Of a DNA stretch of 5,257 nt, positions 397 through 1,782 are shown one piece after another. Where the stretch lies: the NCBI RefSeq assembly GCF_003334385.1, contig NZ_QOWN01000082.1; one strand, written 5' to 3'. The stretch's first letter is position 1; each line of letters opens with the position of its first letter. The translations under genes were made by a program, and so were the position numbers. This DNA comes from Escherichia coli. Lineage in GTDB: Bacteria > Pseudomonadota > Gammaproteobacteria > Enterobacterales > Enterobacteriaceae. Below the pieces are notes generated by a model. The model made no database searches and was not told where the DNA came from. It worked only from the letters and a program-made list of their open reading frames with translations.

Positions 397-1782
397 ATGA
401 ACGACATCTCTTCTGACGACATCTTCCTGCTGAAACAGCGCCTGGCCGAACAGGAAGCGCTGATCCACGCCCTGCAGGAAAAGCTGAGCAACCGGGAGCG
501 CGAAATAGACCATCTGCAGGCGCAGCTGGATAAACTCCGCCGGATGAACTTCGGCAGTCGTTCCGAAAAAGTCTCCCGCCGTATCGCACAAATGGAAGCC
601 GATCTGAACCGGCTTCAGAAAGAGAGCGATACGCTGACTGGTAGGGTGTATGACCCGGCAGTACAGCGTCCGTTGCGTCAGACCCGCACCCGTAAGCCGT
701 TCCCTGAATCACTACCCCGTGACGAAAAGCGACTGTTGCCTGCGGCGCCGTGCTGCCCGAACTGCGGCGGTTCACTGAGCTATCTGGGCGAGGATACCGC
801 CGAACAGCTGGAGTTGATGCGTAGCGCCTTCCGGGTTATCCGGACGGTACGGGAAAAACATGCCTGTACTCAGTGCGATGCCATCGTGCAGGCACCTGCA
901 CCTTCGCGGCCCATCGAGCGGGGTATCGCCGGACCGGGGCTGCTGGCCCGCGTGCTGACCTCGAAGTATGCAGAGCACACCCCGCTGTATTGCCAGTCAG
1001 AAATATACGGCCGGCAAGGTGTGGAGCTGAGCCGTTCACTGCTGTCGGGCTGGGTGGATGCATGCTGCCGGCTGCTGTCTCCGCTGGAAGAGGCGCTTCA
1101 TGGCTATGTCATGACTGACGGCAAACTCCATGCCGATGATACCCCGGTCCAGGTACTGCTGCCGGGTAATAAGAAGACGAAGACCGGGCGGTTGTGGGCG
1201 TATGTTCGTGATGACCGCAATGCCGGGTCAGCGTTGGCACCTGCAGTGTGGTTCGCTTACAGCCCGGACAGAAAAGGCATCCATCCGCAGACTCATCTTG
1301 CTTGCTTCAGCGGTGTGCTGCAAGCGGATGCGTACGCCGGGTTCAACGAGCTGTATCGCAATGGTGGGATAACGGAAGCTGCCTGCTGGGCTCATGCCCG
1401 CCGAAAGATCCACGATGTGCACGTCCGCATCCCGTCAGCACTGACGGAAGAAGCCCTGGAGCAGATCGGTCAGTTGTACGCCATAGAGGCGGATATAAGG
1501 GGAATGCCGGCAGAGCAGCGGCTTGCTGAACGTCAGCGAAAAACGAAACCGCTGTTGAAATCCCTGGAAAGCTGGTTGCGTGAAAAGATGAAGACCCTGT
1601 TCTTCGGCTCTGGCCATGGTGGTGAGCGGGGAGCGCTACTGTACAGCCTGATCGGGACGTGCAAACTGAATGACGTGGATCCAGAAAGCTACCTTCGCCA
1701 TGTGCTTGGCGTCATAGCAGACTGGCCGGTCAACCGGGTCAGCGAACTGCTTCCGTGGCGCATAGCACTGCCAGCTGAATAA
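397..1782 (+). CDS. tnpC: IS66-family transposase TnpC (orfC); probably a defective copy (see findings)
   Basis: 461-aa ORF starting 50 bp after tnpB. It has an N-terminal leucine-zipper-like coiled coil ([20 protein letters not shown]...), a CxxC...CxxC zinc finger (CPNCGG ... CTQC), DDE-region motifs ([15 protein letters not shown]) and a CWAH motif ([11 protein letters not shown]), all typical of IS66 transposases. Confidence 0.88.

Follow-up and report, generated by a model that had tools for sequence, protein, structure and literature searches.

An ISEc8 copy with an in-frame deletion in its transposase gene, probably inactive, is widespread beside the fec island of Escherichia coli

The window, by which we mean the whole 5,257-nt stretch of Escherichia coli DNA analyzed here (contig NZ_QOWN01000082.1, assembly GCF_003334385.1), opens in an insertion sequence with the gene order tnpA-tnpB-tnpC, of which tnpB (its first base cut off by the left edge) and tnpC lie in the window and tnpA is placed further upstream, as seen in the identical loci L001 and L008 to L026 (Table 1). 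We observe more than 99% nucleotide identity to ISEc8 over tnpB, tnpC, and the right end, with terminal inverted repeats that start GTAAGCG, as in the IS66 family and ISEc8. The right end of ISEc8 (...GCTGTACGCTTAC) finishes at window base 1819 in the locus alignment, and the terminal 13 bp (1807 to 1819) repeat the left end GTAAGCGTACAGC perfectly in inverted orientation; this left end lies outside the window and was taken from L001, L003, and L007. The deleted element measures 2,289 bp. The element at L003, whose tnpB has an additional base, measures 2,443 bp, and the ISfinder length of ISEc8 is 2,442 bp. An Rfam scan of the window gave no match.

Elements of the IS679/IS66 family reportedly carry three ORFs and generate 8-bp target duplications, and their TnpC is said to combine a leucine zipper, a zinc finger, and a DDE domain, with a CwAH motif after the second Asp. 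At the window locus an 8-bp target duplication is absent (left flank GATAAAATAGTG, right flank TTTTGTTCGGAC), and the flanks as compared over ...AAATAGTG and TTTTGTTC..., with the left side taken from L001 5518-5530, show no duplication either, indicating that one side of the insertion site was rearranged or lost after insertion. The element thus shares ORF order and terminal repeats with ISEc8 of O157:H7 EDL933 (ORFs L0013 to L0015), as well as an 8-bp duplication at a second site, in yehR, but differs from it in its length, in a shortened TnpC without E438, in the substitutions R199C and D457G, and in the missing duplication at this locus.

Table 1. Features of the ISEc8 copy and its right flank in the window
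Feature	Position	Strand	Basis
tnpB of ISEc8, IS66-type accessory protein, 115 aa	1..347	+	NF033819 IS66_TnpB, E=8.7e-31; equals L001 6000-6347, WP_000612591.1
tnpC with 51-codon deletion, 461 aa for 512	397..1782	+	NF033517, Pfam, alignment; RefSeq label is intact "IS66 family transposase"
Codon 199 TGC (Cys), CGC (Arg) in ISEc8; R199C in PLYRQ motif	991..993	+	Alignment; polymorphic among deleted copies
D247, retained first catalytic Asp (HADDT)	1135..1137	+	Conserved in 107/107; model strand
D311, retained second catalytic Asp (LQADAY)	1327..1329	+	Conserved in 106/107; model
Deletion junction, CCTGT as lone survivor of a 5-bp direct repeat around the lost 153 bp	1596..1600	+	DNA alignment
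Codon GGC (Gly), GAC (Asp) in ISEc8; D457G in intact numbering	1612..1614	+	Alignment
Right terminal inverted repeat, IS end ...CTGTACGCTTAC	1794..1819		8 loci diverge exactly after 1819
Right flank, C-terminal remnant of DUF6404 gene	1822..1899	+	L001 7822-7899 annotation

The tnpC ORF is open throughout, and the intact ISEc8 product, L0015, is listed at 512 aa (PMC2762410). The DNA alignment with an intact ISEc8 tnpC (L003:1998-3536) contains a single gap, an in-frame loss of 153 bp, which removes residues 401 to 451 (intact numbering); outside the gap there are 7 mismatches in 1,386 bp, and fewer when L002 is used. The original prediction, made from the letters of the DNA and their translations, had placed an in-frame loss of about 50 residues at a junction near 1597-1600 and had an EIDNN-type motif in the missing stretch, and each of these points is borne out. 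The lost peptide is LSRHSELAKAFAYALNQWPALTYYANDGWVEIDNNIAENALRAVSLGRKNF, which contains EIDNN, and VEIDNNIAENALR lies within the same 51 residues. The last unambiguous base 5' of the gap is window base 1595, followed by the one CCTGT left in the window, whereas intact ISEc8 tnpC has CCTGT at both ends of the deleted segment. Junction microhomology of 5 bp or longer is expected in about 0.5% of random deletions (usual formula, our own calculation). By megablast, the same 401-base query from the junction region covers 554 bases in copies annotated "ISEc8 family transposase," a difference of 153. The ORF has stayed open only because 153 is divisible by three and the copies have had little time to diverge (at least 99% identical).

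With respect to domain content, the Pfam completeness check that had been suggested along with the alignment to ISEc8 shows LZ_Tnp_IS66, zf-IS66, and DDE_Tnp_IS66_C to be complete in the shortened TnpC and DDE_Tnp_IS66 to be partial, covering model positions 1 to 222 of 284, with the C-terminal element 16 residues further on. The protein nevertheless passes the NCBIfam profile NF033517 with 355.9 bits against a cut-off of 180, its best stretch corresponding to profile positions 4 to 294 of 387. The D-D-E triad is incomplete, with D247 and D311 kept and E438 inside the deleted segment.

Intact TnpC, searched against 1.84 billion cluster representatives, returned 48,648 relatives, and the best 106 representatives of 490 to 600 aa (35 to 54% identical) were aligned with ISEc8, giving 107 sequences. 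D247 (107/107), D311 (106/107), and E438 (105/107) are the near-invariant acidic residues, E438 being the lone one downstream of the other two, and C330, H333, R335, R336, and R379 are invariant or nearly so. The deleted segment is itself strongly conserved at D433 (95 sequences), N434 (98), N435 (97), R442 (94, with Lys in 10 more), A410, Y413, and N450. R199 is Arg in all 107 full-length sequences, as well as in all 144 sequences that cover the column among the 150 representatives checked. No gap over 401 to 451 was found in the 106 representatives of 490 to 600 aa; since this length filter might hide short natural forms, the gap check was rerun on all 150 representatives, where internal gaps over the segment occur in just two fragments, of 197 and 265 aa. 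Both are 99% identical to ISEc8 and hence belong to the same deleted lineage of E. coli, so a natural subfamily of short IS66 transposases is rejected. The two things that the original prediction had named as evidence against itself, gap-free active relatives of about 460 aa and a Cys at position 199, do not appear among the 150 representatives.

An AlphaFold2 model of intact TnpC (mean pLDDT 92.5, pTM 0.80, 71-sequence alignment) places D247 on strand 243-254, D311 right after strand 306-310, and E438 on helix 435-447, with helices 406-416, 418-421, and 435-447 falling in the segment that the deletion removes. A PDB sequence search with TnpC gave no match, and the solved fold closest to the modeled intact protein is that of the ISCth4 transposase of the IS256 family (Foldseek, 6xg8_A, E=6.7e-08, probability 1.0). 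The ISCth4 transposase (PDB 6xg8, 6xgx) likewise has a DDE core of RNase H-like fold in which a helical region precedes the E-bearing helix, but at 11 to 13% sequence identity and in another IS family it is a structural analogue rather than a basis for family assignment. From the conservation pattern and the model we infer that E438 is the third catalytic carboxylate of a D247-D311-E438 triad.

Outside the deletion, two substitutions, C991T (R199C) and A1613G (D457G), together with the deletion itself set the deleted copies apart from both full-length copies in a comparison of 8 loci, whose deleted copies all have Cys199. The reading of codon 199 as LYCQ in place of the family's LYRQ, already made in the original prediction, agrees with the LYRQ of intact ISEc8. 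A1613G, 13 nt downstream of the junction, turns FFGSDHGG into FFGSGHGG; its column holds D or E in 78 of the 107 aligned sequences, and a 70-bp query that includes base 1613 finds a match of at least 99% in 2,187 of 2,230 records. The six amino-acid differences from L003 cannot all be read as decay of the window copy, as four of them (T162A, R212S, R324G, and one more) are private to L003. At TnpC residue 437 (window position 1706) the window keeps the ancestral Leu, while the commonest allele, WP_000998019.1, has L437P; within the deleted lineage, tnpB A77T (window position 228) is private to the window.

We scanned 5,426 complete E. coli genomes for the junction, using a 70-bp query and an E-value limit passed by a full-length match alone. 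The junction is present at 2,408 places in 2,219 genomes, with a median of one per genome and 58 places on plasmids, and it also occurs in at least 120 metagenome contigs, so that a sequencing or assembly artifact is rejected. Roughly 125 of these places in complete genomes are accounted for by neither the fec-side nor the yehR flank. It is absent from 100,044 species-representative genomes (one per species). The deletion is a widespread and stable allele and not decay private to one strain. The junction of the IS end with the window's right flank was found at 2,201 places in 2,170 genomes, and the deleted copies lie nearly always beside the fec island. The plasmid copies inspected carry the window block, comprising the DUF6404 remnant, the phytase-like esterase gene, and IS remnants, with fecI next in L004.

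Among metagenome contigs with the window flank, codon 199 reads TGC in 41 and CGC in 37, on haplotypes that are otherwise identical. As short-read contigs may be chimeric across repeats, the Arg199 form was checked by look-up of the exact 461-aa protein, and deleted TnpC with Arg199 was found on both allelic backgrounds at the same locus in complete chromosomes (e.g., CP051700, CP057905, CP119008, and CP081192). The two Arg199 alleles occupy 323 and 566 index blocks and the Cys199 alleles 3,773 and 11,152. The presence of Arg199 in deleted copies at the same locus indicates that the deletion preceded R199C, which is the order expected if the first lesion removes constraint. This leads us to reject the notion of R199C and the deletion as one linked package, a notion against which the metagenome contigs and the exact-protein look-ups agree. 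The original prediction had taken the two lesions jointly as signs of decay; it holds in that both hit residues that do not vary in the family, but not in treating them as one package, given the deleted copies with Arg199. Judging by the alleles, the deletion would be the primary inactivating event and R199C a later step of decay. Within the deleted lineage, tnpA and tnpB show 9 nonsynonymous and 3 synonymous polymorphisms, consistent with relaxed constraint; the corresponding counts for tnpC are biased, because the loci were fetched by exact TnpC sequence. All three ORFs are open in each of the 20 complete copies sampled, as one would expect where identity is 99% or higher.

DDE enzymes need all three carboxylates to hold two catalytic metal ions, and with the E-bearing helix gone, TnpC should thus be catalytically dead. 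That the 461-aa protein is inactive despite its open ORF is well supported by conservation and modeling, and the decayed, probably inactive copy of the original prediction gains support from the loss of the E438 helix and from the change of R199, otherwise invariant. IS679 and the wider IS66 family elements are reportedly autonomous, whereas the window copy is without the third catalytic residue. We consider it highly probable that the window holds an ISEc8 copy with a 153-bp deletion that arose once, a dead TnpC, later drift, and passive carriage near fec. In such a history the deletion would have come about by slippage or illegitimate recombination between the CCTGT repeats 153 bp apart, removing three helices of the catalytic domain, that of E438 (435-447) included. 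The remaining TnpC would retain its leucine zipper, zinc finger, most of the RNase H-like core, and the C-terminal element, yet would carry out neither strand cleavage nor strand transfer. After this loss the gene would have drifted, R199C arising inside the already deleted lineage and becoming the commoner allele. We infer that the dead element has since been carried passively in the IS-rich mosaic beside fecIRABCDE, presumably spreading with this block among the chromosomes of E. coli and to a few plasmids.

Two alternatives would grant the shortened protein a function. That it is still an active transposase, with some other acidic residue replacing E438, would fit the retention of D247 and D311 and an NCBIfam score above the cut-off, but is hardly credible given that the model loses three helices, including the whole E-bearing one, that no family member lacks the 401-451 segment, and that the invariant R199 is changed as well. 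Truncated transposases of other elements damp transposition, and TnpC might accordingly have been kept as useful, for example by acting in a dominant-negative manner on ISEc8 ends or on intact TnpC through its zipper and zinc finger. The allele is indeed very common, its N- and C-terminal domains are complete, and the open frames of the 20 sampled copies can be read as constraint, which also counts against a dead element, although divergence is too low for stops and open frames are expected without selection among copies this similar. A pattern of drift is seen in R199C, which hits an otherwise invariant residue, in the sub-lineage changes L437P and W285R, and in the 9:3 ratio of tnpA and tnpB; some plasmids carry truncated derivatives interrupted by internal stops, and linkage to the fec block explains the frequency. 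We therefore regard a retained function of this kind as very unlikely, and a dead TnpC, carried passively, remains our preferred reading.

How the deleted element came to lie in yehR is a separate matter. In strain 06_3235, yehR is interrupted by a 2,289-bp element that has the deletion as well as R199C and D457G and is flanked by a perfect 8-bp duplication, GAACGGCA, and the yehR junction is found in 82 genomes, always on the chromosome and in many cases of EHEC type. This duplication shows that, as DNA, the deleted form cannot be called strictly immobile, a point against the reading of a wholly dead element. The element may be non-autonomous but mobile, its intact ends and tnpA and tnpB allowing it to be moved in trans by an intact TnpC, and we give this explanation of the yehR copy a chance just short of even. 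It accounts for the duplication, and a chimeric query made of the deleted segment, the IS end, and the yehR flank found no full-length ISEc8 at yehR in any of the 5,426 genomes; in O103 strain RM8385 (L024 and L025; CP028112.1), no difference separates the fec-side copy from the yehR copy over 2,289 bp; and natural activity of ISEc8 in EHEC/O157 is known from stx2a::ISEc8 (PMC6776261). On the other hand, yehR is the single secondary site found with a flanking duplication, all other altered flanks being without one, and the candidate helper, a tnpC of the full-length type on pRM8385-1, is annotated as frameshifted. Gene conversion is also evident in these genomes and might have converted a full-length yehR copy. 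It is accordingly a serious possibility, though one we place somewhat below even, that the yehR copy arrived full-length and was later converted by the fec-side copy, acquiring its deletion, so that the deleted form never transposed. Conversion is the simplest reading of a tnpA variant, 358C, that is common to both RM8385 copies and missing from the 06_3235 yehR copy, and whole-body exchange does occur, as the O145:H28 copies described below show. Such a history needs two events in place of one, with a tract of at least 623 bp (991 to 1613) that was fixed before the 82-genome clade diversified, and no full-length or mosaic yehR allele is seen. Like internally deleted non-autonomous derivatives of other transposable elements, the deleted ISEc8 has kept intact ends around a dead transposase gene and is known from one secondary site with a duplication; the difference is that its yehR copy is equally explicable by gene conversion. 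We think it unlikely that the element represents a successful non-autonomous lineage, catalytically dead but moved in trans by intact ISEc8 TnpC, with yehR as the visible case, whose 461-aa product may interfere with intact TnpC by way of the zipper and zinc finger it keeps.

The variant shared by both RM8385 copies is private to them, an A>C change at IS position 358 (D89A in tnpA), and the sequence pattern indicates probable gene conversion between the fec-side and yehR copies of this strain.

A chimeric query like that for yehR, built with the window's flank, picked out two O145:H28 genomes that carry a full-length ISEc8 with Arg199 and Asp457 at the window's exact right junction. In O145:H28, the IS body diverges from the window about tenfold more than does the flank (9/1,600 versus 2/3,662 differences), indicating that the body was exchanged with another copy and is not usable as the ancestral state; with this diverged body and a left end cut by another IS, we did not accept the O145:H28 element as ancestral. 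In O145:H28 strain RM12761 (L027 3027-5377), ISEc8 is annotated as frameshifted, and another IS66-family element takes the place of its first ~15 bp. We also did not accept the varied flanks of metagenome contigs as evidence of many insertion sites, since target duplications are absent and short-read contigs can be chimeric; the other flank combinations look like recombination between IS copies or assembly joins. L150 and L160, from two complete genomes (CP164465.1 and CP181462.1), combine the deleted ISEc8 and the fec-side left flank with a right flank ATATAAAGCTCC, where a phage-type integrase gene is followed by a small YqgH-family gene and an Orn/Lys/Arg decarboxylase gene. This arrangement, which is without target duplication, looks like recombination between two ISEc8 copies.

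PGAP/RefSeq names the 461-aa product as an intact "IS66 family transposase" (WP_014966184.1 and WP_000998019.1). About 41% of complete E. coli genomes thus encode a protein that passes a curated family cut-off and yet is without the third catalytic residue, and with the deleted gene labeled as intact, tallies of "active" ISEc8 for E. coli and EHEC run one or two copies per genome too high. What we describe is a known element in defective form, of an ordinary kind but unusually common and systematically annotated as intact, and nothing here challenges current understanding. The 34-bp junction offers a clean marker, apparently restricted to E. coli, of the IS-rich block next to the fec island, and the fec and yehR copies together provide a small natural test of trans-mobilization versus gene conversion for a family with little-studied transposition chemistry. 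No description of the deletion was found in the titles and abstracts of papers that mention ISEc8, nor in the text of the two that mention it most, PMC2762410 and PMC6776261.

The remainder of the window is a mosaic in which the sole obviously intact non-IS gene is a 457-aa ORF at 2021-3394 (-), annotated at 452 aa, that encodes a phytase-like esterase (PF13449) with a signal-peptide-like N terminus and no NCBIfam match. Remnants of IS3-family and IS5/IS1182-family transposase genes, together with a frameshifted hypothetical gene, occupy 3661-3792, 3875-4005, and 4727-5029 according to the colinear O104:H4 annotation. A 97-aa ORF at 4112-4405 (-), for which sister loci give the annotation YmgB/AriR-family biofilm regulator, yields no NCBIfam hit at E<=0.01, and G+C content around it is 32% (4001-4500), compared with 53 to 61% over ISEc8 and the esterase gene (1-3000). 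Colinearity with O104:H4 (L001) ends at 5044, and 5045-5257 is as in L004, L012, L024, and L027, loci with annotated or called IS1-family transposase genes a short way downstream; judged by the IS1 terminal repeat, the IS1 end would start near window position 5100. The break in colinearity and the downstream IS1 genes in the other loci indicate that this IS1 copy is polymorphic between strains.
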